Below are positions 10,934-48,667 of a stretch of DNA of 64,000 nucleotides, in pieces (position 1 is the first letter of the stretch; each line of letters begins with the position of its first letter). The DNA is from Candidatus Bathyarchaeota archaeon (GTDB lineage: Archaea; Thermoproteota; Bathyarchaeia; Bathyarchaeales; Bathycorpusculaceae), in contig CAWGZR010000003.1 in assembly GCA_963827165.1 (NCBI GenBank), forward strand, positions 32,001 to 96,000, written 5' to 3'. The notes under the pieces are model-generated. The model did not search any database and had not been told where the DNA came from. It was given only the letters and a program-made list of their open reading frames with translations. Made by a program: the position numbers and the translations under genes.

Positions 10934-13747
10934 TCAAGACTTGGCCTGCCTTGCAGGGGGCGCTTGCGCCTCTTTTTCCTTTGAACTGGCGATCTTGTGC
11001 AACTGCTCGACGCGCTTATTGATCATCGAGCTCACTTTATTCCTTAGTTTATCGGGAGAGATGTTCTTGTCGCGCAATGCGGTGACCTGACTTGCCAGCG
11101 ATTTGTCTCCCAGCATCGTGAACCAGTTTTCAAAGTCTCCCTCTTCAACGTGAAACTTGACTGAAGATGGCTCGATAGTCTTCACGCTGGCGGCAAGTTC
11201 ATCCAAGCTTTTTGAGGTGACACCGAGAGGTTGCCCGTAATCCCTGTAGAAAGTGAAGGCATCGTCGGGCGTTACCGTTCTGAGCACGTTGGTTGCCTCG
11301 TTTCTTCCAATTTTCCTGCCCTCGCGATTCAGAACTTTGTATAGGCGCACTTTTGCCAAATCAGTCATAAAGAAAAATGCAAACGCGTAACCCCACACAA
11401 AAGCGGCCAGTCCCCAACCCAGCGCAGGAAGCAAAATCCCGTACACCGTAAGTATTATAGCGGTAACTTGAACAGCTATGCATGCAATAAGAAGCTGCTT
11501 AGCAGGCTTCACAGACCAAAAATGACCCTTAGTCCTCGCGACAAACACAGTCATATTTCCCGCCACTGCAAGCTTCAAGTATATGAAAGATTGAAGCACC
11601 AGTAGGTTTAGCTTCAGCACATCTAATCCGATGTAGAGAATTCCGAAAGTTGAGAATACCCCGATTACTCCAAGAAACGTCGCTACACTTAACAGATTTC
11701 GCATATCCCATTTCTCAGGTTTATCCGAGTACTTCACGTTATCATAAGCTATAGTCATAATCGGCAGGTCGTTTAGAAGAGCCAACAAAACAAGCATCAG
11801 AGCAGTGATTGGGAAAAACTTGAAAACCAGGATAGAAGCAGTCATGAAAAGCAGAATTCGTATCGTTTCAGCGATGCGGTACGTGCAATAATTCGTCATA
11901 CGCTGGAAAATCTTGCGACTCTCCTTAATCGCATCAATAATAACTGAAAGACCAGGTTTAGTCAGAACTATTGCTGCTGCCGATTTTGCAGCGTCGGTGG
12001 CGCCTTCAACAGCAATGCCGGCGTTAGCTTTCTTCAAAGCAGGCGCATCATTAACCCCATCGCCTGTCATTCCCACTATGTGTCCTTTTTCTTGAAGAAG
12101 CTCCACAATTTTGTACTTATGTTCAGGGAAGACTTCTGCAAAACCTTCCGCCGCTTCAACCACGCCTTGAGCTTCACTGTCAGACTTATCCAAAAAAGCG
12201 GCTGGCAACACAATATTGTTACCAAGGTTTACTTGACTCGAAATTTCTTTGGCAATAGCAATGTGGTCCCCAGTGACCATTTTCACGTTAACGCCCATCG
12301 ATTGAGCCGTCTTTATTGTCTGAGCAGAATCTTCCCGTGGCGGATCAAATAAACCAATTAAACCCGCAAATTGCCACTTATTCTCCTTATCAGTTCGAGC
12401 AACAGCCAACGCGCGATACCCTTTCTTAGCGAATTCATTAACATCCTCGGTCAATTTGTCGTTAATTGATTTCTTGTCCTCTATCAATGCCAGAATCGCT
12501 TGAGGCGCCCCTTTGGTAACTTTAAATTGGCTTCCATCCTCTCCTTGCACGGTTGCCTCTGTTCTCTTTATGACAGGATCAAAGGGCTTAAAACCAGTCA
12601 CTTTAATGTGCTCAATTTTAACAGCAATATCGGGTGTACTCTTGGTTTTAGTTAAAATTGCAAGGTCAATTGGATCTTTATCTTCTTCTCTTGAAGCGAG
12701 CGCACTGAAAAGTAGTACGTCGTTTTCTGTGAATTTGGCATAAGGTTTGGTTCCACCCATAGTGAGCGCGTTTTTAGTGATAGTACCTGTTTTGTCTGAG
12801 CACAGCACATCCATGCTTGCCATTTCCTCAATCGCAACCAACTTGCTCACTATCGCTTCCTTCTTAGCGAGAGCTATTGCGCCTACGGCCATCGTAACTG
12901 AGAGAACCGCGGGAAGTGCCGCAGGTATCCCCGCAACAACTAAGATCAATGCAAACTGAATGATGCCTAAGATGTTTTGACCTCGAAAAATCGAGACTAC
13001 AACGATTATTGCTACTAGTCCTATCGCTAGGAAAATCAGGTAATCGCCTATTCTGCTAATGGCTTTTTGGAAGTGGCTTGGAGTTTTGGCTATTTCTACG
13101 AGTTTGGCGGTTTTACCGAAAAAAGTTTTGGCGGCGGTGTTAACAACGAGCGCGTTCATTTCGCCCTGTTTTACAATGGAGCTTGCGTATCCAATGTCAG
13201 AGAGATGTTTCTCTACAGGAAGAGATTCGCCAGTTAATGCAGATTCATCAGTTAAAAGGTAGTCTCCCTCAATTAGTTTCACGTCGGCGGGAATGATGTC
13301 TCCTAAACGCACTCGAACAACATCGCCTGGCACCAGTTTTTCCGCCGGTGTTTCCTGCCATTTTCCGTCTCGCAGAACTCGTGCTTTTAGGGCTAGTCTT
13401 TTCTTTAGCTGTTCTATGGCGTCTCCTGCTTTGCGTTCCTGCAAGGATCCGACTGTGGCGTTTACCAGTAATAGAGCTAAAATTATTGCAAAATCAGCCC
13501 AGCTGTGGATGACTGCAGACATTACTACTGCTGCTTCTATCATCCATGGAATTGGACCCCAAAAATAGCGAAGAAACTTTAGAAGCGGGTTAACTTTTTT
13601 CTCCTGAATCTCATTAGGACCATATTGCACAAGTCGTTTTTCAGCTTCTGAGGAAGAAAGACCCCCCTTGCCCGCCGAAAGCTTACTTAATAGTTCATCA
13701 ACATTGGCTTTCTTTGCCTCTTCTGTAGTTAAGGAGTCTTGACTCAT
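10934..13747 (-). CDS. P-type (P3A) proton-efflux ATPase with C-terminal DUF5752-like domain
   Basis: LTGES, IPAALP, CSDKTGT, TGDGVNDAPALK, LLND; extra ~100-aa tail LRTV...AFTFY..YG....SLDEL....SVKFH...GDFENW. Confidence 0.93.
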   Translation of the reverse strand: MSQDSLTTEEAKKANVDELLSKLSAGKGGLSSSEAEKRLVQYGPNEIQEKKVNPLLKFLRYFWGPIPWMIEAAVVMSAVIHSWADFAIILALLLVNATVGSLQERKAGDAIEQLKKRLALKARVLRDGKWQETPAEKLVPGDVVRVRLGDIIPADVKLIEGDYLLTDESALTGESLPVEKHLSDIGYASSIVKQGEMNALVVNTAAKTFFGKTAKLVEIAKTPSHFQKAISRIGDYLIFLAIGLVAIIVVVSIFRGQNILGIIQFALILVVAGIPAALPAVLSVTMAVGAIALAKKEAIVSKLVAIEEMASMDVLCSDKTGTITKNALTMGGTKPYAKFTENDVLLFSALASREEDKDPIDLAILTKTKSTPDIAVKIEHIKVTGFKPFDPVIKRTEATVQGEDGSQFKVTKGAPQAILALIEDKKSINDKLTEDVNEFAKKGYRALAVARTDKENKWQFAGLIGLFDPPREDSAQTIKTAQSMGVNVKMVTGDHIAIAKEISSQVNLGNNIVLPAAFLDKSDSEAQGVVEAAEGFAEVFPEHKYKIVELLQEKGHIVGMTGDGVNDAPALKKANAGIAVEGATDAAKSAAAIVLTKPGLSVIIDAIKESRKIFQRMTNYCTYRIAETIRILLFMTASILVFKFFPITALMLVLLALLNDLPIMTIAYDNVKYSDKPEKWDMRNLLSVATFLGVIGVFSTFGILYIGLDVLKLNLLVLQSFIYLKLAVAGNMTVFVARTKGHFWSVKPAKQLLIACIAVQVTAIILTVYGILLPALGWGLAAFVWGYAFAFFFMTDLAKVRLYKVLNREGRKIGRNEATNVLRTVTPDDAFTFYRDYGQPLGVTSKSLDELAASVKTIEPSSVKFHVEEGDFENWFTMLGDKSLASQVTALRDKNISPDKLRNKVSSMINKRVEQLHKIASSKEKEAQAPPARQAKS

Positions 13748-15066
13748 TCATTGACGCTCTTTATCAGTTTTGTCATTTCCTTCTTGAGCTCGTCAAGTCT
13801 TTTTTGGTCTCGTGCCTCTATCGATAAGCGGAGTATTGGTGATGTATTTGATGCTCTGATCAGAGCCCACGAATCTGGAAAAACAATTTTGACGCCGTCG
13901 ATGGTGTCTGTGTTTTTATATGTTTTCAATGCCTTTTCTTTTATCTTATTGATGACTTGAAACTTCGTTTCGTCAGAGCACTTTATTTCGATTCTTTCGA
14001 AAAGTCTTGAGGGCAGCTCTTTCACGGCTTCTGACAGCTTCTGCCCCATCTTAGAGACTATTTCTGCCATGTACATACTATTTATTATTGCATCGTCGAA
14101 CCAGAAGAACTTTGGAACACATATGTGCCCAGATTCTTCAACACCAATAACCGCGTTATGTTTCTTGGTTTCCTGCACCAAAAACGTGTGCCCAACTGGT
14201 ACTCGAAACACTTTTTCCCCATATTTCTTAACCTCGTCCTCTATAATGTCTGAGCATTCTATGTTGGCGACGACAGGGCCTCTCTGAGTTTTCATTATGT
14301 CCCTGATGAAGAGGATTGCACTTTGCTCGGTCGCGATGACTTTGCCTGTGTCATCAACGAAAATGGCTCTGTCGCCATCGCCATCAAACGCTATTCCAAG
14401 ATCTGCCTTCTCGGTCACAACCTTCTTGCAGAGAGCGGTCAAGGCTTCAGGTTTCGGTTCGGGGTCTCTGTTCGAGAACTTCGGGTCGGGCCAATCAAAA
14501 AGGAAAGTGGCTTTGACACCGATTTTCTTGAGTATCTTCGGTACCAGTAAGCATGCGGCTCCGTTTCCGAAGTCAGCGACCACGCCTATTTTCTCTGGTT
14601 TTATTTTTTCAGCCACGAAATTAGCGTATGCTGCGTCCATCCCCTCGAGCGGTTTTGCTGTTCCTGTGCCTGTTTTGAATTTTTCTGAGGCGCTTATTTC
14701 TCCCAGTTTTTTGTTTTCGTCTTCGAAGAAGCCGACTCCGTCTTGATGGAAGAATTTGACGCCGTTCCACTCCGCCGGGAGATGGGAAGCGGTTATGTAG
14801 GCGGTTGCGTTGTTTTTCATTTTCCAGTTTGCAAAGACGCAGAGACTCGCAGGGCAGGTTCCGATCAGATTTGCGTTTGACCCGGTTTTTTTTAATCCTG
14901 TAACGAACGCTTCTTCAAGTTGGGCTCCGTGTTCTCTGAAGTCTCTTCCAATGGTGAAGGTGCCGGGGCACAAAGTTCCGGCTGCCTGACCTATTCGGGT
15001 CATAATCTCTTCCGTCAAGTCTTTACCGTAAATTCCTCGTATGTCGTAAGCTCTAAAAATACTCAT
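13744..15066 (-). CDS. Phosphoglucomutase/phosphomannomutase
   Basis: IFRAYDIRG, TASHLP (phospho-Ser), FDGDGDR, EESGH, IRASNT; 4-nt ATGA overlap with the ATPase start. Confidence 0.92.
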   Translation of the reverse strand: MSIFRAYDIRGIYGKDLTEEIMTRIGQAAGTLCPGTFTIGRDFREHGAQLEEAFVTGLKKTGSNANLIGTCPASLCVFANWKMKNNATAYITASHLPAEWNGVKFFHQDGVGFFEDENKKLGEISASEKFKTGTGTAKPLEGMDAAYANFVAEKIKPEKIGVVADFGNGAACLLVPKILKKIGVKATFLFDWPDPKFSNRDPEPKPEALTALCKKVVTEKADLGIAFDGDGDRAIFVDDTGKVIATEQSAILFIRDIMKTQRGPVVANIECSDIIEDEVKKYGEKVFRVPVGHTFLVQETKKHNAVIGVEESGHICVPKFFWFDDAIINSMYMAEIVSKMGQKLSEAVKELPSRLFERIEIKCSDETKFQVINKIKEKALKTYKNTDTIDGVKIVFPDSWALIRASNTSPILRLSIEARDQKRLDELKKEMTKLIKSVNE

Positions 15067-15545: not shown

Positions 15546-16565
<1,020 letters not shown>

Positions 16566-17129
16566 TCGAGCACCGCTTAGCACCGCTTAAACTTTAAAAA
16601 CCCTCAAATTTTTCTTTTGCCAGAAACTTGAAAGTCTTGAACAGATTGAAGAGCATTGGCGAGCAGGTAAGCATCCGCGGGAAATGGCTGAGAAATAAGC
16701 TAAGTTTCCTTGCTATCATACAGTGTTCCAGATTTTCATCCATGAATGTTTCGTCAATTCAATCGCGATACATTCACACCAAAGGACCATTTGCTGAGGA
16801 GAGTCTGGATGCTGAGACATAGTGCCCTTTTTTTGGCAGACTAAAAGGTACGTGCCTTTACAGATTAAGCTTGGCGCGCGCCGCGCTTTATCTTCTCATT
16901 TCACTTATTACAGACTTCTTGTTTCCAGAGGCTAAAGTTAGCTCTTCCATTCCAAAGTGTAATCTGCTAGCTGTATTATTTGAAACGGTTAGGCTTGCAG
17001 TAATCACGGAATTATCTGAACTGCTTTCTTGTTGTTTTTTAGGAATTTTATTGGGCAGTACGCGTAAAGTTTGCAAAAGAATATATTAACTGCTTTCAAG
17101 CTTCTGGAAAAATCTGGAGATAATAGAAA

Positions 17130-17312
17130 GTGGTTAAAATAATTGTCAACAACGATACTTGTACCGGATGCGAAAACTGCGTAAACACTTGCCCTGTAAG
17201 CGTCTACGAAATGAAGAACGGCAAATCGGTCCCAGTCAAAATAGATGATTGCTTAGTCTGCAGAGCATGCGAAGCCCAATGCCCAACTGGTTCAATTCAA
17301 GTAATTGAATAG
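17130..17312 (+). CDS. 2[4Fe-4S] ferredoxin
   Basis: CTGCENCVNTCP and CLVCRACEAQCP. Confidence 0.92.
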   Translation: MVKIIVNNDTCTGCENCVNTCPVSVYEMKNGKSVPVKIDDCLVCRACEAQCPTGSIQVIE

Positions 17313-17600: not shown

Positions 17601-20060
17601 ATGGAAAAGAAGTATAGATACATACGGTTCTTCAAGGAAATCGGGGTTGATGACGTAGCTCTAGTAGGAGGCAAAACATCTTCCCTGGGTGAACTGTATC
17701 GCAAGCTAACTCCGCAGGGAGTAAAAGTACCTAATGGCTTTGCCATAACTGCGCAGGCCTATCGTTACATTCTTGATAAGGCCAATGCCTGGGATGCCCT
17801 CCACAAAACAATGGAAGGTATTAATCCGGCTAATATGACAGACCTGTCAAACCGTGGAAAAGAAGCACGGGCGATTATCTATGGGGCTCCCTTCCCCGAC
17901 GACTTGAGGCAAGAGATACTCCAGGCCTACCACACTCTTCAGGACGAGTATGGGCATGACCTGAGCGTAGCAGTGCGCAGCTCTGCCACCGCAGAGGACT
18001 TGCCCAACGTCAGCTTTGCTGGTCAGCATGAGAGCTACCTAAACATATACGGTGATGAGTTGCTCATAGATTCCTGCAAACGTTGCTTTGCCAGCCTTTT
18101 TACCGACCGCGCCATTCATTACCGAATTGACCAAGGCTTCGATCACTTCAAGGTATACCTCTCCATTGCAGTCATGAAGATGGTTCGTTCGGATTTGGCC
18201 GCAAGCGGCGTCATATTCTCATTAGACACGGAGTCAGGCTTCCGAGACGTGGTATTCATAACCGGCGCCTATGGACTCGGCGAGAATATGGTTCAGGGCG
18301 CGGTGGATCCGGACGAGTTCTATGTCTTCAAACCAACTCTGGAGCAAGGTTACCGAAAGATCCTGCGGCGCGTACTCGGAAACAAAGAAATCAAGATGGT
18401 TTACCGCGAAGGAGGGACCCGTGAAGCCACCCACAACATTCCTACACCCCAAGCTGACCGCGAGCATTTCTGCATCTCCGACGAAGAGGCACTCATCTTG
18501 GCGGACTACGCGGTAAAAGTAGAAAAGCACTACACGCTGAAAGCGGGACATCCTTTGCCCATGGATATGGAATGGGCAAAAGATGGCAAAGATGGACAGC
18601 TTTACATGGTCCAAGCACGACCCGAAACTGTTATCTCGCAAAGGCAAGTAAGCATGCTTGAAGAGTATGTGCTTCAGGGCACTGGAAAGGTTTTGGCGAC
18701 GGGCCGCTCCGTTGGCGAAAAAATTGCCAGCGGTACAGCTCACAAAATTTTAGACACAGTTCACCTTTCTGAATTTAAGCCCGGGGAAGTCTTGGTGGCC
18801 GATACCACATCTCCTGACTGGGAACCCATAATGAAAACAGCGGCAGCCATTGTCACTAACCGGGGCGGACGCACATGCCATGCGGCAATAGTTAGCCGTG
18901 AGCTGGGCATACCCGCGGTAGTTGGAGCTGAAAACGCTACAACAAATATCCCGAGCGGGGAAAAAGTTACTGTCTCTTGTGCTGAGGGAGATGTTGGCAA
19001 GGTGTACCAAGGCGAGATTCCCTTTGTGGTGAACAAAACAGACCTCAGCTCTCTGAAACAGCCCAACACCGAGATAATGATTAACCTGGGTAATCCAGAA
19101 CTGGCCTTCAAAACAAGCTTTATCCCTAATGATGGGATAGGCTTGGCCCGCATGGAGTTTATTATCAGTGAATACATCAAAATCCACCCTATGGCTCTTG
19201 TACATCCCGAACGTGTAACCGATACCAAGGAACGTTCAGCCATCGATCGTATCACCCAAGGTTATAGCCAGCCCGCTGCATTCTTTATCGAACGCCTTTC
19301 AGAGGGTGTAGGCACTATTGCCGCGGCTTTTTACCCGAAACCAGTAGTAGTGCGTATGTCTGACTTTAAGAGCAATGAGTACGCGAGTCTTTTGGGCGGG
19401 AAATTCTTTGAGCCTGCTGAGAACAATCCGATGCTGGGTTTTCGTGGGGCATCGCGCTATGCTCACCCCGATTATGTTGAGGGCTTCGCGCTTGAATGTG
19501 CGGCTATGAAACGGGTTCGAGACGAGATGGGGCTTACCAATGTTAAGCTCATGATTCCCTTCTGTCGGCGAGTTGAGGAAGCCGCTAAGGTAATTGGGAA
19601 AATGGCGGAATTTGGTTTGGAGCGTGGCAAAAATGGCCTCGAAATCTATGTTATGTGTGAAATCCCAAATAATGTCATTCAGATCGATGCCTTTGCCAAG
19701 CATTTCGACGGTTTCTCAATTGGTTCCAATGATCTTGCCCAGCTTGTGCTGGGGGTGGATCGCGACTCCGCAATCGTGGCTTTTGACTATGACGAGCGTG
19801 ACGTCGGAGTAAAAGAAATGATCCGGCTCTCAGTCGAAGGTTGTAAGCGTAACAAGCGGCACTCGGGGCTCTGTGGCCAGGCCCCCTCGGACTATCCGGA
19901 GATGGCCGAGTACCTAGTTGAGCTCGGCATAGACTCCATAAGTCTCAATCCTGATGCTGTGCTTAAAACCATCTTACATGTGCTGGAAATCGAAAAAAGA
20001 CTTGGCCGCAAACAACGAGATGAGAAACAGGCAAAAATCTCAACCGAGAAAGCGACTTGA
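17601..20060 (+). CDS. ppsA: Phosphoenolpyruvate synthase
   Basis: VGGK, AVRSSATAEDL, QARPET, GGRTCHAAI (phospho-His), ENNPMLGFRG, FSIGSNDL, GLCGQ. Confidence 0.97.
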   Translation: MEKKYRYIRFFKEIGVDDVALVGGKTSSLGELYRKLTPQGVKVPNGFAITAQAYRYILDKANAWDALHKTMEGINPANMTDLSNRGKEARAIIYGAPFPDDLRQEILQAYHTLQDEYGHDLSVAVRSSATAEDLPNVSFAGQHESYLNIYGDELLIDSCKRCFASLFTDRAIHYRIDQGFDHFKVYLSIAVMKMVRSDLAASGVIFSLDTESGFRDVVFITGAYGLGENMVQGAVDPDEFYVFKPTLEQGYRKILRRVLGNKEIKMVYREGGTREATHNIPTPQADREHFCISDEEALILADYAVKVEKHYTLKAGHPLPMDMEWAKDGKDGQLYMVQARPETVISQRQVSMLEEYVLQGTGKVLATGRSVGEKIASGTAHKILDTVHLSEFKPGEVLVADTTSPDWEPIMKTAAAIVTNRGGRTCHAAIVSRELGIPAVVGAENATTNIPSGEKVTVSCAEGDVGKVYQGEIPFVVNKTDLSSLKQPNTEIMINLGNPELAFKTSFIPNDGIGLARMEFIISEYIKIHPMALVHPERVTDTKERSAIDRITQGYSQPAAFFIERLSEGVGTIAAAFYPKPVVVRMSDFKSNEYASLLGGKFFEPAENNPMLGFRGASRYAHPDYVEGFALECAAMKRVRDEMGLTNVKLMIPFCRRVEEAAKVIGKMAEFGLERGKNGLEIYVMCEIPNNVIQIDAFAKHFDGFSIGSNDLAQLVLGVDRDSAIVAFDYDERDVGVKEMIRLSVEGCKRNKRHSGLCGQAPSDYPEMAEYLVELGIDSISLNPDAVLKTILHVLEIEKRLGRKQRDEKQAKISTEKAT

Positions 20061-20090: not shown

Positions 20091-20222
20091 ATGAAAAGAA
20101 TAGCAATTAACGGACTGGGGCGTATAGCTCATGGATACCTTTCGGCTTGTTGCTTTGTTGACGAAAATGAAAATATTTTAAGACCTGAGAATGGGCTAAG
20201 AGCCTGTGGTAGGGATAAATAG
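20091..20222 (+). pseudogene. 5' stub of a type I GAPDH gene
   Basis: SD-like GGAGA, then MKRIAINGLGRI followed by unrelated sequence and a stop. Confidence 0.75.
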
Positions 20223-26621: not shown

Positions 26622-27557
26622 TCAATTGGCATTATTTTTCAAAAGTTTCTCTTTATCTGCGAACTCTGCCATTAAGATCTTGATTCGTTCGGTTATTTCT
26701 AAAGCATTTTTGAAGGGTCGCTGCCAAAGGTTTCTTCCAAATACTAATCCAGTTGCTCCTGCACCTAAAGAGATTCTGACCTTTTCTAAGAGTTCATCAT
26801 CTCCCATTTCTTCTCCCCCAGATATTAGCGCCATCGTTTTTCCTGCTGACCCAATTACTTTTTCAAGGGCTTCTTTTGTGTTAAGCTGGAGCGCGTCATA
26901 CGGTTTAGGATACAGTCGACTTCGCTCTTTATCATATTTGGGAACGTTCATTTTAACCATATCAGCGCCCAGTTCGTTGGCTACTCGTGCAGCATAGTCA
27001 ACAGCGTAAAGGCTATCCCTACCGCCCTTAGCTTCAATCGCCTCACCCCTTGGATAAGCCCAAACAATAAGAGGCATACCAAACCTTTGGCTATCCTCCC
27101 TAATTTTGGCGAATTGAATGAAATCCTTATCTTGGGCAGGCGAGCCCACAAACAAGGTATATCCAACAGCGTCAGCGCCAAGACGAACTGCATCCTCTAC
27201 GGAAGCGGTTTGAGGTGAAAAGGCACAAGTATCTGGAGGGATCGATGTTTTTCCATTCAGTTTAAGAATCAAGGGAATTTCACCAGTGAACTCCTTCATG
27301 TATTTTTCAGCCAGGCCAATGTGAAGGACTATGGCTGAAAAACCGCCCTCTTTTGCCAATTTCAACTGGTAGGCAGGATCAACGCTTTCTGGATTTGCAA
27401 AGAAATCTCTCGGGCCATGCTCCAATCCATGATCAATTGGAAGAATAAGCGCCATTCCGTTACCCACTCCATGCTCATACAAGATTCGATGAAGCCTAGT
27501 CCTCTTACCGAGATTAAGGTTCAAATCTTTAAGCAAAGGTCTCTTAACTTGAATCAT
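26622..27557 (-). CDS. Class I fructose-bisphosphate aldolase (DhnA/FbaB type)
   Basis: DHGLEHGP, KLNGKT, AYPRG, GADMVK (Schiff-base Lys), SGG, FGRN. Confidence 0.9.
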   Translation of the reverse strand: MIQVKRPLLKDLNLNLGKRTRLHRILYEHGVGNGMALILPIDHGLEHGPRDFFANPESVDPAYQLKLAKEGGFSAIVLHIGLAEKYMKEFTGEIPLILKLNGKTSIPPDTCAFSPQTASVEDAVRLGADAVGYTLFVGSPAQDKDFIQFAKIREDSQRFGMPLIVWAYPRGEAIEAKGGRDSLYAVDYAARVANELGADMVKMNVPKYDKERSRLYPKPYDALQLNTKEALEKVIGSAGKTMALISGGEEMGDDELLEKVRISLGAGATGLVFGRNLWQRPFKNALEITERIKILMAEFADKEKLLKNNAN

Positions 27558-30514: not shown

Positions 30515-31792
30515 CTAAGCATCTATTCTGCTGGGTTTTTCTTCTAGGATATTGTGTTTCTCAAGTATTCGAAGAACCTCTGCAACACTCCATGCTTGAG
30601 AAGTGGTTCCTCCTGGCGTGTAAGGTGGATCGCCAGAAAACACTTCTGGAAGGGACTTATAGGGGCTTTCCACACGAAACCTCACAAGGGGGCCAATGTT
30701 TCGGGTAATTTCATCGCGAATGGATGTAGTGCTTTCCCCTTGATATAGGCGAACACTTGCTAGAGCATCACAATAGGGTCCAATTAGCCATGGCCAAGCA
30801 GTGCCTTGATGGTATGCCAGATCTTTTTTATTCGCAGGTAGATAGGTATCATAAATTCCTCTGTATTGGGAATCTCTGGGCGAGAGTGTGCGTAATCCTC
30901 CGGGCGTAAGCAAATCCCTTTTTGCTGATTCGACTACCCCAGTCTGACGGTTCTGGGGAAGTAGGTCTCCCCCGTGACTCACAGCGAGAACCATGTTAGG
31001 TCGAATTGCTCCTCCATGGGGGTCTCCTTCAATAACATCTAGCAAAGCATTTTCAGACCAATTCCAAAATTTGCTATTGAAAGATTTTTTAATGTCGTCA
31101 GCGAGTGAATCATAATCTTTTGCTTTAAGTAAATTCTTTTCCTGCCTTTCTAACGTTGCCAAAAATCTCATGTTATCATACCAAAGGGCATTGATTTCGA
31201 CTGCCTTACCATTTCTTGGAGTCACGATTGTTTTGCCAGTGCCCGACGGGTCGGCATCCATCCATGTTGCTTGGGGTGGACTTACAATAAGCGCGTCATT
31301 TTCATCCATCTTGATAGTTTGTTTCTTTCCAAAACGTTCATAACTTGTGCCATGCTTGTACGCATCTATTATCCTTCTTAGAACAGGTAGCATTTCTGTC
31401 ACAAAGTTACAATCGCCCGTATATTTCCAGTACGACTTCATTGCTTGGATGAACCACAGTGGAGCACCCACACTATTGTATTCAATCGTATTCTTCTTTA
31501 TCCTATTTGGGATCAAACCGTTTTTCTCATATGTAGCAAAATCTCTTACAACTTGTTTCGCTTCATCAAATCTTTTAGTGACGAGAAGAATCCCCGTAAA
31601 TGAAATGAAAGTGTCTCTTCCCCATTCTTCAAGAAACCAGTCCCTGTTAGCCGCCCATATTTGTACGTCTCCACCTACATGTTTAACGAAAGAATCCGCA
31701 GCGTGCATAAAAGTTTCAAGAACGGGATATTTCTCCCAAAAAGAATCGTCATCTTCACCGTATACGAGTCTGGTGGGTTGATTTCCTACCAT
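30515..31792 (-). CDS. Amylo-alpha-1,6-glucosidase (glycogen debranching enzyme, C-terminal catalytic domain)
   Basis: WGRDTFIS, GLIPN, TWMDA, TPRNGKAVEINALW, GLRTLSP, YHQGTAWPWL, QAWSVAE. Confidence 0.88.
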   Translation of the reverse strand: MVGNQPTRLVYGEDDDSFWEKYPVLETFMHAADSFVKHVGGDVQIWAANRDWFLEEWGRDTFISFTGILLVTKRFDEAKQVVRDFATYEKNGLIPNRIKKNTIEYNSVGAPLWFIQAMKSYWKYTGDCNFVTEMLPVLRRIIDAYKHGTSYERFGKKQTIKMDENDALIVSPPQATWMDADPSGTGKTIVTPRNGKAVEINALWYDNMRFLATLERQEKNLLKAKDYDSLADDIKKSFNSKFWNWSENALLDVIEGDPHGGAIRPNMVLAVSHGGDLLPQNRQTGVVESAKRDLLTPGGLRTLSPRDSQYRGIYDTYLPANKKDLAYHQGTAWPWLIGPYCDALASVRLYQGESTTSIRDEITRNIGPLVRFRVESPYKSLPEVFSGDPPYTPGGTTSQAWSVAEVLRILEKHNILEEKPSRIDA

Positions 31793-31842: not shown

Positions 31843-32832
31843 TTATGTCGCCAATACTCTTGCAAGGTTTAGTAGGCTCAAATCAATTGGTTTCTCTGTC
31901 TTGCATGATTCCTCAAGCTCCATGCTCGTTATTTTGCCATTTTGCAACACAACCGCCCTGCTTTTTTGTCGTTCAGATATTAGTTCAACCGCTTTGTCCG
32001 CGAATAGGCTGGCCAGAAGCCTGCTTCTCGCCGACGGATTACCACCTCTCTGGGTATAGCCCAAAACGCTAAGCCTCACCTCTGCTTCAGTGGCTTTCTC
32101 GATTTCATTCGCAAGCTGACGATTGTCTCCGATTCCTTCCGCTGCAACAATTATGGCTGATCTTTTTCCTCTTTCTTTGCTTTCTTTGATAGTGTTGAAG
32201 ATTTTTTCATTTTCGTATTTTACCTCTGGAACCAGAATCATTTCGGCTCCAACGGTGACCCCCACATTTAGTGCAAGGAACCCTCTTGTTCGCCCCATGA
32301 CTTCAACTATGAAGATTCTTTCAAGGGAGACTGCTGTATCTCGAATCTTGTCGATTGCGTTTACTGCCGTATTTACTGCGGTGTCGAATCCTATAGTTTC
32401 GTCCGTTCCGAAAACGTCGTTATCGATTGACGCTGGAACCCCCACGATTGACGTGCCGGTTTCTTTGCTTAGTTCTAGAGCCCCTTGGAGAGAGCCGTTA
32501 CCGCCAATAACAACAAGGCCATCGACATTGTTTAATGCAAGAGTCTGGGCAGCTTTCTTGATTGCTTCATCTTTTTTGAACTCTAGGCATCTTGACGTAT
32601 GAAGGATTGTTCCTCCCAGATGTAATATTCCGCCAACGGAGCGTGGAGCCAATCGTCTAAACGAGTTTGTTAGTAAGCCTTCCCAGCCCCTTTCGAACCC
32701 TATAACCTCCATGTTTTTTGAGTTAGCAATGCGAACAACGCCTCGAATAGCTGCGTTCATGCCTGGCGCATCTCCGCCACTTGTAACAACGCCTATAATC
32801 TTCATTTTCATTCCTTCATATCGACAAAACAC
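31843..32832 (-). CDS. pfkA: ATP-dependent 6-phosphofructokinase (PfkA family)
   Basis: TSGGDAPGMN, GGNGS, SIDND, EVMGR, LGYTQRGG; likely start near 32811. Confidence 0.93.
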   Translation of the reverse strand: MFCRYEGMKMKIIGVVTSGGDAPGMNAAIRGVVRIANSKNMEVIGFERGWEGLLTNSFRRLAPRSVGGILHLGGTILHTSRCLEFKKDEAIKKAAQTLALNNVDGLVVIGGNGSLQGALELSKETGTSIVGVPASIDNDVFGTDETIGFDTAVNTAVNAIDKIRDTAVSLERIFIVEVMGRTRGFLALNVGVTVGAEMILVPEVKYENEKIFNTIKESKERGKRSAIIVAAEGIGDNRQLANEIEKATEAEVRLSVLGYTQRGGNPSARSRLLASLFADKAVELISERQKSRAVVLQNGKITSMELEESCKTEKPIDLSLLNLARVLAT

Positions 32833-32843: not shown

Positions 32844-33659
<816 letters not shown>

Positions 33660-34922
33660 TCAAGTCGTTTTCTTGCTGGCATAGCTGTCATAGATGGCGA
33701 GAGTTTGCTCGGCAACAATTCTCCAAGTGAAATGCTTCAAGACTACTTTTCGCCCATTAATACCCCACTGCTTGGCTCTAGACGGGTCTTTGAGCACCTC
33801 TTTGATGCCCCACGCAATGTCAACTGGGCTCCCACCATCCACGTGAACACCGTTTTGCTCCGGACCCGCTGGAATGACTTGCTCACGAAAACCAACCACG
33901 CCCTTAGCGCCGACCACCACAGGTTTTTCCATAGACATAGCTTCCAAGCTCACAATGCCAAACGGCTCATAGACAGAAGGGAAAACGCACAAATCAGAAG
34001 CAGCATAATGCAAAATCCTCTCTTCCTCAGACACAAATTCAGGACGGTATACTACGTTCTTACTAATGCCAAGTCGATCCGCAAGTTCAGTTATATCCTG
34101 CTGTTCCTCGCCCTTTCCAAGTATCACCAGCTTCGCCTTTGGATATTCAGCCAAGACCAAAGGCATCCCCTGAACAAGATTCCTAACACCCTTCACCCAC
34201 GTCAAACGACCTAGAAAAAGTATCATAGTTTCATCTTTGGCTATTCCATATCTCTGCCTGAGCTTCTGCACATCTTCTGACTTGGCTTTTTGAGGATCGT
34301 ATTTTTCTGGATCAACGCCGTTCCAAACCACATGAATTTTTGACTCTGGCCACCCATGCTTAGCTAAATCTTCCTTCATCACGTGACTTACAGTGATGAT
34401 GCCGTCTGCTTTTTCAGCCATCATAGACTCCAGATGATTCACAGTTGCTGAGCCTTCTCCACCGCTTCTTCCCCACTCTGTGGAGTGCACATGAAATATT
34501 ACAGGTATTTTCAACTCGTTCTTGCAGATTATTCCTGCTATGCTGCTCAACCAGTCGTTAATTGAAACTACGGCGTAGTCGCAGTTCTCCTTCTTTATGA
34601 CGTCGTTTATCATTTTTGCGGCTGACAACATATTGTAAGCGAATATGTCGGTGAAGAATTTTATGTTTGTACCCCATCTTTTAAGGTCGTTTGCCACAAA
34701 CAACGGAAATACATTGCTAGCTTCCACAAGGAGTGGCCTATGAATTTCCACCCCGCCCAAGATTTCGCTTGTTTTCAGGTTTCCAGGGTTAAGCGTGTAA
34801 ACGCTGACATCCCGTCCCAAAGCCACAAACTCCTTCGTTATATACTCAGCATAGGTTCCCAATCCACCAACAATCGCAGGCGGATACTCCATCACAAAAA
34901 ACGCAATTCTCAAACAGTTCAC
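33660..34922 (-). CDS. GT4 glycosyltransferase, probable glycogen synthase
   Basis: EYPP..VGGLG, NDWL, HSTEWGR, PSVYEPFGIVSLEAM; glycogen gene context. Confidence 0.8.
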   Translation of the reverse strand: MNCLRIAFFVMEYPPAIVGGLGTYAEYITKEFVALGRDVSVYTLNPGNLKTSEILGGVEIHRPLLVEASNVFPLFVANDLKRWGTNIKFFTDIFAYNMLSAAKMINDVIKKENCDYAVVSINDWLSSIAGIICKNELKIPVIFHVHSTEWGRSGGEGSATVNHLESMMAEKADGIITVSHVMKEDLAKHGWPESKIHVVWNGVDPEKYDPQKAKSEDVQKLRQRYGIAKDETMILFLGRLTWVKGVRNLVQGMPLVLAEYPKAKLVILGKGEEQQDITELADRLGISKNVVYRPEFVSEEERILHYAASDLCVFPSVYEPFGIVSLEAMSMEKPVVVGAKGVVGFREQVIPAGPEQNGVHVDGGSPVDIAWGIKEVLKDPSRAKQWGINGRKVVLKHFTWRIVAEQTLAIYDSYASKKTT

Positions 34923-35003: not shown

Positions 35004-36023
35004 CTATGTCGCGTTGGGTTGAACAACATTTTGTGGTTTCCCAGAAACGAAAGCAGCTATGTTTTCTACTGTTGTTTCAAGTATTCTTTCTAGGGCTTCT
35101 TTGCTGTAGAAAGCTATGTGAGGAGTAAAAACAACATTGTCTTTGCTCAGCAGAATGTGATCCTTAACCAAGCTGGCCAAGACTTCGAGATTCTTAGGCT
35201 CGTATAACAGCTGCTTTTCCTCCTTTATAACTTCCTCGCCCTCAAAGACATCAAGACCCGCACCAGCCAGTATTTTGTTGTCAAGAGCCTCGATTAATGC
35301 TTCAGTATCCACAATACTTCCTCTTGCAGTGTTTATTAGAATAGCACCTTTCTTAACAAGCTTAAACGTATCTTTGTTCATAAGATGATGCGTGGCTTTC
35401 ATGTACGGCACATGCAGCGTAATTACATCTGAGCCAGCTAAAAGGTTCTCCAGCGAAACATATTCAAAACCCAAGACCTCAGATAGAAGTTTGTTTTGAC
35501 GGACATCATATGCTACAACGTTCATGCCGAAGCCTTTTGCAATCCTGATGACATGCAAACCGATTTGACCAGTTCCGATGACACCTATAGTTTTTCCTTT
35601 CAAGTCGAACCCCTCTAACCCCTCTATTGAGAAATCTTGTTCAAAACGTCTAATGCATGCCTTGCACATGTTTCTCGACAAAGACAGAATCAAAGCAAAC
35701 GTGTGCTCAGCAACAGTATTCTCCCCGTAAGATGGAACATTGCAAATTGTAATTCCCTGTTTCTTGCATGCTTCTAAATCGATGTGGTCGAAGCCGGTGG
35801 ATCTTGTTGTTACTAGTTTCAAATTTGGAATTTCCCGAATGATTTGCTCATCTATTTTAGAATAGATGAACACTGAAAGGGCATCAAAATCTTTTATTTG
35901 AGCGGCATTTTCCAAACTTAGCTTTTCATTTGAAAATTTCAGTTGGTGACCGTTCAGCTTCTTTTTGAGGTATTCTTCTTCCCATTCTTCGACTTCGAAA
36001 AACGCTATTTTCATCTTTTCCAC
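35004..36023 (-). CDS. D-2-hydroxyacid dehydrogenase, probable D-lactate dehydrogenase
   Basis: RSTGFDHID, NVPSYG..VAEH, GTGQIG, INTARG, LDVFEGE, TPHIAF. Confidence 0.85.
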   Translation of the reverse strand: MEKMKIAFFEVEEWEEEYLKKKLNGHQLKFSNEKLSLENAAQIKDFDALSVFIYSKIDEQIIREIPNLKLVTTRSTGFDHIDLEACKKQGITICNVPSYGENTVAEHTFALILSLSRNMCKACIRRFEQDFSIEGLEGFDLKGKTIGVIGTGQIGLHVIRIAKGFGMNVVAYDVRQNKLLSEVLGFEYVSLENLLAGSDVITLHVPYMKATHHLMNKDTFKLVKKGAILINTARGSIVDTEALIEALDNKILAGAGLDVFEGEEVIKEEKQLLYEPKNLEVLASLVKDHILLSKDNVVFTPHIAFYSKEALERILETTVENIAAFVSGKPQNVVQPNAT

Positions 36024-36124: not shown

Positions 36125-36592
36125 TTACGGGTGTTGTAATTCGGCAATGCGGTTTTGAACAGTTTGGGAAAGCTCTTTCCTCAAGTCCTCTTCTTGAGGA
36201 CTGGCTTTAATCTGGTCAATTCTTTTTCCTAGTTCTTCATCGCCAATTGTGTTTTTGAACCATTTTTGAAAATCTTGACGCTGAAAATGAAACATGACAG
36301 ACTGAACGGGTACTGTTTGGAGTTTTTCAGCGAACTCAACCATGCTACATGCGGTTATTCCATTGTATTTTCCGAGTTCTGTGTAAAAATGAAAGCCGCT
36401 TTCAAAGGGAACAGTGTTCAGTAGGTTTAGGTTTTTAGGTTTTTCTATAGGCTGTTTTTTGGTTATTGCTATCTTGGACAAAATATGGACACGACCTGAA
36501 ATAAAGGGAGAATAGGGGTAGACCCTTATAACTTCTTGTGATTGTGAAGGCGCAGCTACATTTTCAAAGTGAGTCAAGGAGGAGATAGTCAT
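36125..36592 (-). CDS. Stand-alone DUF5752-like domain protein
   Basis: LLNTVP...GFHFY..LG...G.TA.S..EF...L..V...SV.FH..R.DF..W....IGD.EL; start uncertain. Confidence 0.7.
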   Translation of the reverse strand: MTISSLTHFENVAAPSQSQEVIRVYPYSPFISGRVHILSKIAITKKQPIEKPKNLNLLNTVPFESGFHFYTELGKYNGITACSMVEFAEKLQTVPVQSVMFHFQRQDFQKWFKNTIGDEELGKRIDQIKASPQEEDLRKELSQTVQNRIAELQHP

Positions 36593-36775: not shown

Positions 36776-38203
36776 GTGTGTTGTTCTAGGATGCGTGGCG
36801 ATGTTTTGTTGAAGAAAACAAAGATTATATGCACTTTGGGTCCCGCTAGTTTTTCAAAGCAAGTGATTGAAAAAATGTTTCAAGCGGGCATGAACGGTGC
36901 AAGGATAAATACTGCTTATGGAAATCTCGCTCAATACCAGTCGGTTATAGAGACAGTGCGGGAAGTTGCGGATATCCCCGTAATAATTGATATCAAAGGA
37001 CCAGAAATTAGAATCAGGGCATCTCAACAAAAGGTCTTCAGCAAAGGAGATATTTTGGAAGTTGGCTTCAACGGGGAAGAAGTCAGTTTCAATCACGATT
37101 TCTATGACGAAATGAGAGTTGATGACGAAGTATACATCGATAATGGAAAAATTAGAACACGCGTAGTTGAATTGAAAGATCGCAAACTTCGGCTTCTCAC
37201 CTTGGACGGCGGCGTCATAGAAGATGGAAAAGGCGTTAACATTCCCAACAAGCATCTTTCAGTTCCCACTTTCCCCGAAAAAGACTTGGAGATTATAAGT
37301 TTTGCAAAAAAACAAGACGTGGAATACGTTGCGCTTTCATTCACAAGGAATGCCGAAGACGTGAAAAACTTGTCCCAGACCAATGGTTTTGGAGGCGGAA
37401 TAATCGCCAAGATTGAGAACTCTGAGGGCGTTCAAAACGTCAAAGAAATTTTAGACGCCGCTAGTGGATTAATGGTTGCAAGAGGCGATTTGGCAGTTGA
37501 AATCGAACCTGAAAAAGTACCTTTGGTTCAGAAATCCCTAATCAAACTGTGCAATCAGAAGGGTAAGCTTGTTGTAACTGCAACCGAGATGCTTGAATCG
37601 ATGATTAATGAACCCAGTCCAACCAGAGCTGAAGTCAGTGACGTTGCAAACGCAATACTAGATGGGTCAGACGCCATTATGCTTTCTGGAGAAACAGCTA
37701 TGGGTCAGTATCCTGTGGATGCCGTTGAGATGATGACTCGTATAGCGAACGAAACCGAGAAGGCCGTCAAAAGCAATGTTGAGGATACAACGTTTATCAA
37801 CATTTCTGATACGGTAAGCAGGGCAATCCAGAGAATATGTCAAAGTATGCCGATTCACACAGTTGTACCTTTGACGCACTCAGGCTATACAGCCCGAATG
37901 ATAGCTCGCTTCAAGATTGCACAGCCGATAATTGCTGTCACTCGTGATATTAAAGTTAAAAAACAACTGGAACTCATATTCGGCGTTTATCCAGTGTTGA
38001 TAAATTACCGTGAAGAAAAAGATAGATTATTGACGGTTGCAAACCAACTTCATAAAATGCATCTGGTTGATGATGAAGATATAGTCTTGTTCACTGAGGG
38101 TGTAAGAACTACTATGGAGCACGCCAGCAACTCAATAGAGATACATAAAATAAAAGAATTAAGAGAATTTGCGGCGTCCTCAGAGCTGACAACGTTTTGG
38201 TGA
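36776..38203 (+). CDS. pyk: Pyruvate kinase
   Basis: KTKIICTLGPA, DIKGPEIR, AKIE, MVARGDL, PTRAEVSD, MLSGETA; the start is probably a few codons downstream. Confidence 0.96.
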   Translation: MCCSRMRGDVLLKKTKIICTLGPASFSKQVIEKMFQAGMNGARINTAYGNLAQYQSVIETVREVADIPVIIDIKGPEIRIRASQQKVFSKGDILEVGFNGEEVSFNHDFYDEMRVDDEVYIDNGKIRTRVVELKDRKLRLLTLDGGVIEDGKGVNIPNKHLSVPTFPEKDLEIISFAKKQDVEYVALSFTRNAEDVKNLSQTNGFGGGIIAKIENSEGVQNVKEILDAASGLMVARGDLAVEIEPEKVPLVQKSLIKLCNQKGKLVVTATEMLESMINEPSPTRAEVSDVANAILDGSDAIMLSGETAMGQYPVDAVEMMTRIANETEKAVKSNVEDTTFINISDTVSRAIQRICQSMPIHTVVPLTHSGYTARMIARFKIAQPIIAVTRDIKVKKQLELIFGVYPVLINYREEKDRLLTVANQLHKMHLVDDEDIVLFTEGVRTTMEHASNSIEIHKIKELREFAASSELTTFW

Positions 38204-38212: not shown

Positions 38213-38902
38213 ATGATCTGCAATCTGTTTGTCTTTAGACACGCTGAGACTACCGATAACTGCAACCAAATATTCTCCGGCTGGCGTGACCCTGACTTAA
38301 CTTCAAAGGGACTTTTGCAGGCGCAAGAAGTTGCTCAACAGTTGGAACAAGAAAGAATTGACTACGCGTTTACCTCACATCTTTTGCGAGCTAAAAGAAC
38401 CCTTGAAATTGTCCTAAAACCGCACCTCAACGTTCCAGTTTTCGTGGACGACCGCCTGATTGAACGTTGTTATGGTACGTTGCAGGGCAAAAGCAAGGTC
38501 GAGATTGCAGCTGAAAAACCTGAGTGGTTTGCCAAAGTTCACCGGGGTTTCGATTTTGCGCCTCCTGAAGGTGAAAGCCTCAAGATGGTGGAAAGCCGGA
38601 CTTTGCCCTTTATTGTGCAGCTTGAAAAGTGGCTTCAACAGCATCCGGGCAATGTGGCTATCTCGTGTCATGGCAATTCAATGCGGCCGATTAGAAGGGT
38701 CTTTGAACACTTAAGCCTTAAGCAGATGCTTCAGCTTGAGAACCCACAGGACCAAGCGATGGAATACGCTCTTCACATACACCGCGTCAATGTTAACGAA
38801 GTTGAAGAGGGCAAACCCGAAAAGGATTGGCAAAGCGTTGTGGTCCCATCTTCTGTAAAGTTAGCTACGGACCCACGAAACCCATTAATGCAATACTATT
38901 AA
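38213..38902 (+). CDS. gpmA: 2,3-BPG-dependent phosphoglycerate mutase (histidine phosphatase family)
   Basis: FRHAET, FSGW.D, LIERCYGTLQG..K, PPEGESL, HGNSMR. Confidence 0.8.
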   Translation: MICNLFVFRHAETTDNCNQIFSGWRDPDLTSKGLLQAQEVAQQLEQERIDYAFTSHLLRAKRTLEIVLKPHLNVPVFVDDRLIERCYGTLQGKSKVEIAAEKPEWFAKVHRGFDFAPPEGESLKMVESRTLPFIVQLEKWLQQHPGNVAISCHGNSMRPIRRVFEHLSLKQMLQLENPQDQAMEYALHIHRVNVNEVEEGKPEKDWQSVVVPSSVKLATDPRNPLMQYY

Positions 38903-48665: not shown

Positions 48666-48667
48666 AT

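Follow-up and report, generated by a model that had tools for sequence, protein, structure and literature searches.

A probable accessory glycogen and Embden-Meyerhof gene cluster, linked to a predicted proton pump, in peat and soil Bathyarchaeia

Bathyarchaeia belong to the most abundant archaea in anoxic peat and in sediments, and none of them is in pure culture. Among the systems closest to the locus described here, bacterial central glycolytic (gap) operons, for example cggR-gapA-pgk-tpiA-gpmI-eno in Bacillus, comprise the lower trunk of the pathway in five to six genes, which are the sole core copies and have a dedicated repressor, and type IIIA P-type H+-ATPases are known as Pma1 in fungi and AHA in plants, with an archaeal member in Methanocaldococcus jannaschii. 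Archaeal Embden-Meyerhof-Parnas (EMP) pathways are said, by Brasen et al. in 2014, to be modified and to have their genes dispersed. A further source likewise describes them as modified, with ADP-dependent kinases, GAPOR or GAPN and the fructose-bisphosphate (FBP) aldolase/phosphatase, and their genes as usually dispersed (PMC12525153), and a glg operon of the order glgBCDAP-amy-pgm is given for Lactobacillus acidophilus (PMC4282360). As to peat Bathyarchaeia, the EMP pathway is described as partial and gluconeogenic with hexokinase missing (PMC11619403), and glycogen phosphorylase is mentioned for bacterial metagenome-assembled genomes (MAGs) only (PMC8130349). In the literature we met with no account of a complete glycogen-to-lactate block, nor of one being accessory or tied to a P-type proton pump; supplementary gene tables may list individual genes. 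Here we report on a stretch of 64,000 nucleotides from a Candidatus Bathyarchaeota archaeon (GenBank assembly GCA_963827165.1, contig CAWGZR010000003.1, positions 32,001 to 96,000; in the following, the window), in which positions 13744-38902, called the island, hold intact genes for each step from glycogen to pyruvate and for a D-lactate-dehydrogenase-like enzyme, as judged by the listing of open reading frames (ORFs) and by Pfam (Table 1).

We regard it as probable, with considerable room for doubt, that a peat and soil genus of Bathyarchaeia carries the island as an accessory "glycogen plus Embden-Meyerhof" supercluster, additional to a dispersed core glycolysis, fermentative, linked to a proton pump and exchanged among species. 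All 17 metabolic ORFs of this copy are uninterrupted, and a Pfam family lies on an uninterrupted ORF for each of the 13 steps: phosphorylase, debranching, phosphoglucomutase (PGM), glucose-6-phosphate isomerase (PGI), phosphofructokinase (PFK), fructose-bisphosphate aldolase (FBA), triosephosphate isomerase (TPI, TIM), glyceraldehyde-3-phosphate dehydrogenase (GAPDH), phosphoglycerate kinase (PGK), phosphoglycerate mutase (PGAM), enolase, pyruvate kinase (PK) and lactate dehydrogenase (LDH). The Pfam matches span nearly the full profiles (PGM/PMM domains I-IV, Gp_dh_N/C, PPDK_N with PEP-utilizers, Phosphorylase with DUF3417, PGK, DeoC/LacD aldolase, enolase, PGI, GDE_C, PFK, TIM, GT4/Glycos_transf_1, 2-Hacid_dh, PK and His_Phos_1). 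Curated NCBIfam cut-offs are passed by eight of the 13 steps and missed by PGM, FBA, PGI, the debranching enzyme (GDE) and the dehydrogenase; the models passed are those for type I GAPDH, phosphoenolpyruvate (PEP) synthase, alpha-glucan phosphorylase, AceTr, enolase, ATP-PFK, archaeal-type TIM, pyruvate kinase and the cofactor-dependent phosphoglycerate mutase (dPGM) subfamily. All 15 genes named in an earlier reading of this DNA (the original prediction) are uninterrupted ORFs, and the block it outlined begins and ends exactly with the first (pgm) and the last (gpmA) of them; the AceTr/SatP channel, the DUF5752 gene and the H+-ATPase had not been mentioned. It had also seen no glucokinase, FBP phosphatase (FBPase), GAPOR or GAPN in the window, which agrees with Pfam scans of 60 window frames, and the same scans found neither an NDP-glucose (glgC-type) pyrophosphorylase nor a branching enzyme there.

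As in the Bacillus gap operon, trunk genes are clustered and partly co-transcribed, and a type I GAPDH is joined by PGK. Unlike that operon, the island combines 13 steps with glycogen enzymes, a dehydrogenase, a channel and a pump in about nine short transcription units of mixed orientation, is accessory, redundant and patchily distributed, and contains no repressor gene or shared operator that we could find. In three places (pgm/H+-ATPase, eno/pgi and pyk/gpmA) neighbouring genes overlap or are separated by 10 nt, and six minus-strand genes, gde-pfk-tpi-gt4-hadh-DUF5752, follow each other with gaps of 11-101 nt and are divergent from pyk-gpmA. With the L. acidophilus operon, the island shares the clustering of phosphorylase, a synthase-type glycosyltransferase and pgm; it differs from that operon in having no glgC-type pyrophosphorylase or branching enzyme in the window (Pfam scans) and the whole EMP pathway attached, in its archaeal DUF3417 type of phosphorylase and in a transferase that is GT4-like and not a clear GlgA. 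Compared with the modified archaeal EMP pathways, aldolase and TIM are of archaeal types and the phosphorolytic entry from glycogen bypasses hexokinase, whereas PFK-A is of the ATP type, GAPDH of type I and the mutase a dPGM, and the genes are clustered.

The source genome (G000; 3.13 Mb, 14 contigs, 94.5% complete) carries the window on its contig C3; C numbers denote contigs, of G000 if no other genome is stated, other G numbers the genomes of relatives, and L numbers loci in named records around relatives of the PGI gene. Second copies, whose existence elsewhere in the genome the original prediction had considered, were found for every pathway step by tblastn of the island proteins against G000 and by Pfam families, so that the island genes are not the only ones; these other copies are dispersed. 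Core paralogs on C5 are gap (85% identity; C5:279814-280815), pgk (67%) and an adjoining gt4 (51%) with DUF5752; tpi (70%) lies near gde (41%) on C9, pyk (75%) on C12 and pfk (64%) at 35 kb of C6, and identities to the island are 40% for pps, 33% for eno, 33% and 30% for pgm and 29% for an aldolase-family (fba) gene. The only PF00342 PGI genes of the genome are the two island copies, and no other copy of the His_Phos_1 mutase was found in the genome by tblastn; instead, the core genome has a crenarchaeal-type PGI/PMI (PF10432, on C2) and two metalloenzyme-type phosphoglycerate mutases. Three core steps, namely PGI/PMI, the metal-dependent mutase and the 33%-identical enolase, use families different from, or distantly related to, those of the island. 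The result is an unusual redundancy at the level of a pathway: a whole central pathway as an exchangeable block beside a core set with other families at three steps. The original prediction had set classical enzymes against modified archaeal ones, a contrast that fails here since classical GAPDH, PGK and ATP-PFK are core enzymes of the genus as well and do not distinguish the island. ROK glucokinase, ADP-dependent kinases (PFK or glucokinase), cupin PGI and the FBP aldolase/phosphatase were not found in G000 at its 94.5% completeness; outside the window, the genome holds a GlpX FBPase, an IMPase-type phosphatase and NDP-sugar pyrophosphorylases beside pgm paralogs. Small clusters also exist in the core set (DUF5752-gt4-gap-pgk at C5:276500-282130 and gde near tpi at C9:211246-214833), and the island may have been put together from them.

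A near-complete second island occupies C6:1-25810, with 88-96% nucleotide identity to the window copy in five blocks of 20.7 kb in total. It starts inside pyk, at the contig end, lacks the broken DDE transposase stretch, and has lost pps apart from its last 28 codons, tpi apart from 43 codons, and the 5' portion of satP; the small ferredoxin frame of the window copy, 73% identical to a paralog at C5:244117-244293, is missing here together with pps. Insertions of 1 nt interrupt gap, glgP (two), hadh and pyk of this copy; they lie outside long homopolymers, and assembly error is possible. The stubs that the original prediction placed between the genes belong here and to relatives (pps, tpi, satP and pgi) and not to the window copy, in whose 13 intergenic stretches tblastx against the genome found no stub of a glycolytic gene, matching only the C6 counterparts, the ferredoxin paralog and small repeats; no tRNAs (0) or RNA families were found in the window either.

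Since all genomes are MAGs and the estimated contamination of G000 is 3.92%, several copies per genome might be a binning artefact, with contigs of co-occurring congeners in one bin and at most one island per cell. Many island copies do lie at contig ends: C6 begins within pyk, G012:C11 breaks off within pyk, and the contigs G101:C52, G004:C10 and G010:C15 open inside the island. Copies from other species, too, are at least as close to the window copy as the C6 copy is. However, C6 (142 kb) is matched by no other part of the genome once its first 26 kb are left aside, it bears the only core-type PFK of the genome, and genome self-comparison gave only 37 repeat pairs of at least 800 bp, not a pervasive doubling, which argues against a wholesale mixture of two strains in the bin. 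We therefore judge this artefact to be unlikely, yet far from negligible.

The distribution among relatives was surveyed in about 100 congeneric Bathyarchaeia species (counts out of 101 include G000), which are not independent of each other and all of which are metagenome bins; a gene called absent is one that the sampled genomes did not yield. The titles of related contigs name Candidatus Bathyarchaeia or -ota MAGs from peat, bog and soil. PF00342 PGI occurs in seven of 101 genomes (six of 100 congeners plus G000) and island-type enolase (at least 85% identity) in 13 of 101, G000 included, and an island segment (at least 1 kb at no less than 82% nucleotide identity) was found in at least 31 of 100 congeners among the matches listed, with hadh-DUF5752-pyk-gpmA as the most widespread part. 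Of 24 other congeners, 22 have a core-type PFK, whose identity to the island enzyme is 60-66%, and three (G003, G012 and G020) have an island-type PFK (87-89%; threshold at least 86%), besides the two copies of G000; in G030, which belongs to another family, a 73% identical PFK stands beside gt4. Gene content and order vary as well: the island of G003 is rearranged, its pgk and pgm are broken and its gpmA is reduced to a stub; in G012, pgi and tpi are stubs (tpi with 34-43 codons in C6 and G012), hadh is split, and the stretch covered yielded no aldolase. Several bins (G012, G020, G045 and G101, among the matches listed) hold two island copies on different contigs. Around relatives of the PGI gene, ten of 43 loci have island-like neighbours, nine of them titled Bathyarchaeia or -ota, while the other 33 (mostly Thermoplasmatota and bacteria; 45-63% identity) show PGI without island company. 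The tenth, L024, is a contig of 7152 bases titled Candidatus Acidoferrum sp., in which pgm-fbaI-eno-pgi follow in island order with 84/84/80/65% protein identity; it is either a Bathyarchaeia contig misbinned with an acidobacterium or a case of cross-domain transfer. Of the versions examined, the window copy is the best preserved.

An alternative would see the block as the usual core glycolysis cluster of the lineage, inherited vertically and in no way accessory. It could draw on the partial clustering of core glycolysis itself (DUF5752-gt4-gap-pgk at C5:276-282 kb, tpi near gde on C9), on the gt4-pfk pair in another family (G030) and on an island G+C content equal to that of the genome. It is nevertheless already contradicted, and we consider it most improbable: every step has another copy in the genome, PGI and enolase are restricted to the 7/101 and 13/101 genomes given above, order and content differ among G000, G003, G012 and the PGI loci, and the PFKs of island and core fall into two distinct clades, each with full support. 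An island that is patchy across Bathyarchaeia, in an order not shared by all relatives, is not what the original prediction would have expected of such a core cluster.

The history of the accessory island was approached by gene trees. Among the 30 sequences of a PFK tree, the five island copies cluster as one clade (support 100/99) that is sister to the copy of G030 (90/87) and stands apart from the ten core copies of the genus (100/100). Patristic distances between island PFKs are shorter than those between core PFKs in six of six species pairs (0.11-0.18 against 0.21-0.37), and these shorter distances would fit a spread among species after their divergence. In a pyk tree of 20 sequences the window copy groups with those of G103 and G014 (99/99) and not with the C6 copy, and the approximately unbiased (AU) test rejects a clade of the C3 and C6 copies (p = 0.004), from which it follows that the two copies of G000 are not a recent duplication in place. 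Island copies are set apart from core copies in the pyk tree as well. The stubs show that the common ancestor carried the full set. A direct repeat of 168 nt (83%; 8188-8352 and 41407-41574) brackets 33 kb with the pump, the island and an insertion sequence (IS), and a sequence at about 41375-41975 recurs at 76-90% in many congeners, often 2-20 kb from island copies (G020, G054, G012, G023, G001 and G010). An empty insertion site could not be defined across 100 congeners, as the right flank (40419-50700) is not syntenic and yields scattered pieces of 68-90% identity.

A view of the island copies as selectively neutral remnants of segmental duplication that serve no purpose and are being lost would account for the losses of the C6 copy (pps, tpi, 5' satP) with its 1-nt insertions in gap, glgP, hadh and pyk, and for the broken pgk, pgm, hadh, pgi and tpi in G003 and G012. 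Such an origin is very unlikely for the island as a whole: all 17 metabolic ORFs of the window are intact, dN/dS between window and C6 copies is 0.04-0.24 (14 genes), so that both copy lineages were constrained for most of their separation, and three island enzymes are of families different from, or distantly related to, the core ones and hence are not core duplicates. Island-type sequence is also present in peat RNA libraries, three from two studies, whose contigs of at least 90% identity cover 24-28 of 30 bins of positions 19000-38950; these contigs indicate presence in such libraries and do not prove transcription, permit no ranking of genes and may include DNA carry-over and relatives, and uncovered bins in X16, X17 and X20 carry no meaning. 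In the best DNA holder, X1, 30 of 30 bins are covered and 43 of 63 contigs are at least 99% alike, and since X1 may be the source sample it is not independent.

Searches against solved structures refine three of the weaker assignments. The best solved structure for the aldolase, in a PDB sequence search, is the class I FBA of Thermoproteus tenax (1ojx, 178 bits). The nine best PDB sequences for the dehydrogenase are D-LDHs or D-LDH-type 2-hydroxyacid dehydrogenases, matched at full length (3kb6 with 254 bits), and in an alignment with 3kb6 and 5z20 the motifs GVIGTGQIG, NTARG, LDVFE and TPHIA are conserved; the Rossmann GxGxxG is kept, as are the catalytic Arg, Glu and His positions of the D-2-hydroxyacid dehydrogenase family. 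Similarity to D-LDH structures is the sole ground on which lactate is proposed as the product. The GT4 enzyme reaches 168 bits on TIGR02149 (cut-off 302), matches GlgM 6tvp partially with 107.7 bits and Pyrococcus GlgA 2bis over its full length with 75 bits; by these PDB matches it sits between mycobacterial GlgM and Pyrococcus glycogen synthase, with all NCBIfam cut-offs missed. The GDE_C hydrolase is without the N-terminal half of archaeal GDE. The island PFK has the motifs GGNGS / PASIDND, against GGDDT / PKTIDND in the pyrophosphate (PPi)-type outgroup; by the rule that separates the two types (GGDGS / PGTIDND in ATP-PFKs, with small residues where PPi-PFKs have Asp and Lys), island and core PFKs alike bear the ATP-type signature. 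A third PFK-A paralog (40-45% identity) of the PPi type, with GGDDT or GGEDT / PKTIDND, exists in many genomes of the order (for example G016:C5:533464-534138, G026:C2 and G030:C27) and was not found in G000. The island enzymes are ordinary members of known families, and the novelty lies in their organisation and population dynamics. A second alpha-glucan phosphorylase is encoded at 60994-63183 (minus strand), about 22 kb to the right of the island (TIGR02094, 794 bits; 39% identity with the island phosphorylase); upstream of it comes a PAS-domain protein (59820-61010).

Phosphorolysis followed by ATP-PFK, GAPDH/PGK and PK nets 3 ATP per glucosyl unit, and an NADH-dependent lactate dehydrogenase closes the redox balance. 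The accessory island could accordingly be read as a device by which stored glycogen would be used through phosphorolysis, without a hexokinase, none having been found in the genome, at a net gain of 3 ATP per glucosyl unit, with NADH being re-oxidised by the reduction of pyruvate to D-lactate. The acid would leave through the AceTr-type channel, and some of the ATP would be spent on the P-type proton pump linked to the block, by which cytoplasmic pH and membrane potential could be held in acidic, anoxic peat. PEP synthase and GT4 would refill the store, helped by the FBPase and pyrophosphorylase genes of the core, and the island would be passed or recombined among species of the genus and decay where it is not needed. 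On paper, the block is as self-contained as the original prediction had it, from phosphorylase through to the D-LDH-like reductase. Its description as a fermentation module holds in that every catabolic step is encoded, but the block is not purely catabolic, given the PEP synthase and the glucan-synthase-like GT4 gene, and the lactate end product is favoured by the structural relatives of the dehydrogenase but not by the curated D-LDH cut-offs, all of which are missed. For part of the genus, the island thus offers a testable alternative to the published picture: catabolism of sugar from internal glycogen, in which hexokinase is unneeded and 3 ATP are gained per glucosyl unit.

A number of points weigh against the fermentative, pump-linked and exchangeable accessory module proposed here. 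The dehydrogenase stays below the cut-offs of D-LDH models (219 bits against 356 for NF006374, 197 against 579 for NF009127) and scores alike on models of glyoxylate reductase (229.9, cut-off 455) and of phosphoglycerate dehydrogenase (PGDH; 220.7, cut-off 454); aldolase, PGI, GDE and GT4 miss their cut-offs too, and the PFK is atypical in having Asn where ATP-PFKs usually carry Asp (GGDGS). Three AOR-family genes elsewhere in the genome could include a GAPOR. The direction of flux is not fixed, as pps and the glucan-synthase-like GT4 are anabolic and GAPDH/PGK reversible, the latter serving gluconeogenesis in many archaea. A shared promoter motif was not detected, k-mers (k = 8-12, one mismatch, both strands) in ten upstream regions being no commoner than in shuffled controls, and the H+ specificity of the pump is predicted, its coupling to the island being suggested by gene order alone. 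The shorter PFK distances could also stem from a slower evolution of the island copies. An integrase, a tRNA target or a clear att site was not found in the window, where only DDE transposases occur, and the G+C content of the island (0.446) does not deviate from that of the genome (0.445), so that mobility is argued from distribution and trees only, with mechanistic support limited to IS elements and repeats. Only the ferredoxin-pps-glgP-satP part is higher in G+C (0.49); as this part also lies on a different contig from the rest of the island in G103, the island looks modular. Finally, two-copy states may partly be co-binned relatives, and the single-base frameshifts may be assembly errors. 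What the original prediction called possibly mobile thus gains from patchy spread, diverged multiple copies, IS elements and the incongruence of PFK and pyk trees, which fit an exchangeable accessory module, and loses from the want of integrase, att and tRNA target and from the inconspicuous G+C content.

In a rival reading, the block mainly manages a glycogen store by cycling and gluconeogenesis, being neither a fermentation nor an acid-stress device, and the dehydrogenase serves another 2-oxoacid. PEP synthase, GT4, GDE, PGM and PGI lie in the block beside the reversible GAPDH/PGK, GlpX FBPase and an IMPase-type phosphatase are at hand outside the island, the dehydrogenase does equally well on glyoxylate reductase and PGDH models, and the EMP pathway of peat Bathyarchaeia has been read as gluconeogenic (PMC11619403). 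On the other hand, the ATP-type PFK and the pyruvate kinase, both in the island, are catabolic only, the Pfam scans found neither an FBPase nor an NDP-glucose pyrophosphorylase in the window, all nine top structural matches of the dehydrogenase are D-LDHs or of D-LDH type, and an acid channel and a proton pump are linked. We hold such a store manager to be rather unlikely, though the likeliest among the alternatives.

The pump matches TIGR01647 over the full length of the model (1052.7 bits, cut-off 615.5), and its ATG overlaps the stop codon of pgm as ATGA, which as a feature of the sequence is a strong sign of co-transcription. The gene is co-duplicated on C6, adjoins the island pgm in G012, L031 and L056 and is about 0.3 kb away from it in G003. 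Acid stress, among the conditions guessed at in the original prediction, thereby gains some support, and the overlap with a gene for an H+-efflux pump lets one frame a concrete hypothesis on how the cells survive in acidic peat. Like Pma1 and AHA, the pump has a C-terminal extension at the place where eukaryotic pumps carry their regulatory tail; unlike theirs, this tail has the OrfY/DUF5752 fold and is no R-domain, and the start of the gene overlaps the pgm stop codon, with ion specificity being predicted. By alignment, its last approximately 100 residues are homologous to the free DUF5752 protein of the island (28-29% protein identity, in the window, between the free form at 36125-36592 and the tail form at 10934-11350), and the tail of the C6 pump is, in nucleotides, 83% identical to the free DUF5752 gene of the window. 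On C6, free gene and pump tail (C6:1790-2107 and 25848-26165) form a direct repeat of 318 nt and 82% that brackets the island, which suggests domain exchange or recombination between free gene and tail.

The true start of the DUF5752 ORF is probably later than annotated, with a conserved core at residues of about 56-152; in an AlphaFold (AF2) model the core, residues of about 60-155, has a pLDDT above 90. Foldseek aligned this core with 4cso, the OrfY of Thermoproteus tenax (named "OrfY protein, transcription factor" by its depositors), with a probability of 1.00, an rmsd of 1.6-1.7 A over 83-86 columns and 21-22% identity, and a profile search gave E 5.9e-8 for the same pair. The fold is the same, with two tandem units in 4cso and one each in the island protein and the ATPase tail. 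A search of the ESM Atlas returned the own family only, with scores below 0.9, and we found no literature on DUF5752 or OrfY. Further DUF5752 copies of the genome adjoin the core gt4 on C5 or are close to a pgm-pyrophosphorylase pair on C9, so the domain keeps company with glucan metabolism, while its fusion to the ATPase was met in 12 protein clusters only, all from close relatives (fusion survey). It is tempting to regard pump and island as one regulated acid-survival device with OrfY/DUF5752 as a sensor of the glycogen or sugar-phosphate state, which as pump tail would gate H+ extrusion by glycolytic supply and in its free form would control the divergent pyk and gt4-pfk units; the gating would then be an archaeal counterpart to the glucose activation of yeast Pma1. 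Free and fused forms would be interchangeable parts in this reading, as the apparent exchange of domain sequence between them and the bracketing repeats on C6 suggest. We consider this joint reading quite unlikely as it stands.

Table 1. Features of the island and its edges, with positions in the window
Feature	Position	Strand	Evidence
H+-efflux P-type ATPase, plasma-membrane type IIIA, with C-terminal DUF5752/OrfY-like tail (~residues 820-917)	10934..13747	-	TIGR01647, Pfam E1-E2_ATPase
Phosphoglucomutase/phosphomannomutase (G1P <-> G6P), pgm	13744..15066	-	Pfam PGM_PMM I-IV; archaeal GlmM/PGM-type model 386 bits (cut-off 439)
Type I (bacterial/eukaryotic-type) glyceraldehyde-3-phosphate dehydrogenase, gap	15546..16565	+	TIGR01534 446.9 bits (cut-off 367.2)
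Small 2x[4Fe-4S] ferredoxin frame, between gap and pps	17127..17309	+	Pfam Fer4_7, E 1.3e-11
Phosphoenolpyruvate synthase (pyruvate, water dikinase), pps; anabolic step	17601..20060	+	NF005057 1149.5 bits (cut-off 598)
Alpha-glucan (glycogen/maltodextrin) phosphorylase, archaeal DUF3417 type	20206..22758	+	TIGR02094 809.9 bits (cut-off 191.7); Pfam Phosphorylase + DUF3417
AceTr/SatP (GPR1/FUN34/YaaH) organic-acid (acetate) channel, satP	22891..23493	-	NF038013 247.5 bits (cut-off 50); Pfam PF01184
Broken DDE transposase, two overlapping frames	23760..24949	+	Pfam DDE_5, DDE_Tnp_2 on 23760-24443; no family on 24317-24949
Phosphoglycerate kinase, pgk	25356..26591	+	Pfam PGK 404.7 bits, full length
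Archaeal-type class I fructose-bisphosphate aldolase (DhnA/FbaB family)	26622..27557	-	Pfam DeoC; NCBIfam class I FBA 212.7 bits (cut-off 277)
Enolase, eno; 8-nt overlap with pgi	27775..29040	+	TIGR01060 546.4 bits (cut-off 300)
Glucose-6-phosphate isomerase, PF00342 type, pgi	29033..30430	+	Pfam PGI
Amylo-alpha-1,6-glucosidase (GDE_C) debranching-type hydrolase	30515..31792	-	Pfam GDE_C 349 bits; TIGR01561 model positions 260-566 only, below cut-off
PFK-A family 6-phosphofructokinase, ATP-type signature, pfk	31843..32832	-	NF002872 389.9 bits (cut-off 253)
Archaeal-type triosephosphate isomerase, tpi	32844..33641	-	NF003302 309.3 bits (cut-off 132)
GT4 glycosyltransferase resembling glycogen synthase / maltose-1-phosphate synthase	33660..34922	-	Pfam Glycos_transf_1, Glyco_transf_4, weak Glyco_transf_5
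D-isomer 2-hydroxyacid dehydrogenase, D-lactate-dehydrogenase-like, hadh	35004..36023	-	Pfam 2-Hacid_dh; PDB D-LDH matches
DUF5752 / OrfY-like single-repeat protein	36125..36592	-	Pfam PF19027, 34.3 bits (cut-off 23)
Pyruvate kinase, pyk	36776..38203	+	TIGR01064 442.3 bits (cut-off 306.4)
Histidine-phosphatase-family protein, cofactor-dependent phosphoglycerate mutase-like (gpmA)	38213..38902	+	Pfam His_Phos_1; TIGR01258 94.9 bits (cut-off 81.7), residues 5-119 only
Intact IS transposase (DDE_Tnp_4 + HTH_Tnp_4), just past the right end of the island	39486..40418	-	Pfam

To the left of the island, an ion-homeostasis block (426-6694) encodes a Na+/H+ exchanger, a ClC channel with CBS domains and a second P-type ATPase, which is 63% identical to the island-linked pump; the block is duplicated at C7:37214-43528 with 80-86% nucleotide identity. 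It is followed by an eRF1-family gene (6705-8000, minus strand), which marks the host as archaeal and has a paralog at C9:270044-271372 (71% nucleotide identity), so that the genome contains two fairly similar release-factor-like genes. Small proteins encoded at 8396-8800, 9068-9568 and 46226-46885 show a development-and-cell-death (DCD) domain, a C2H2 zinc finger and a weak match to Snf7/ESCRT-III (E 6.5e-4, below cut-off), all of them domains better known from eukaryotes.

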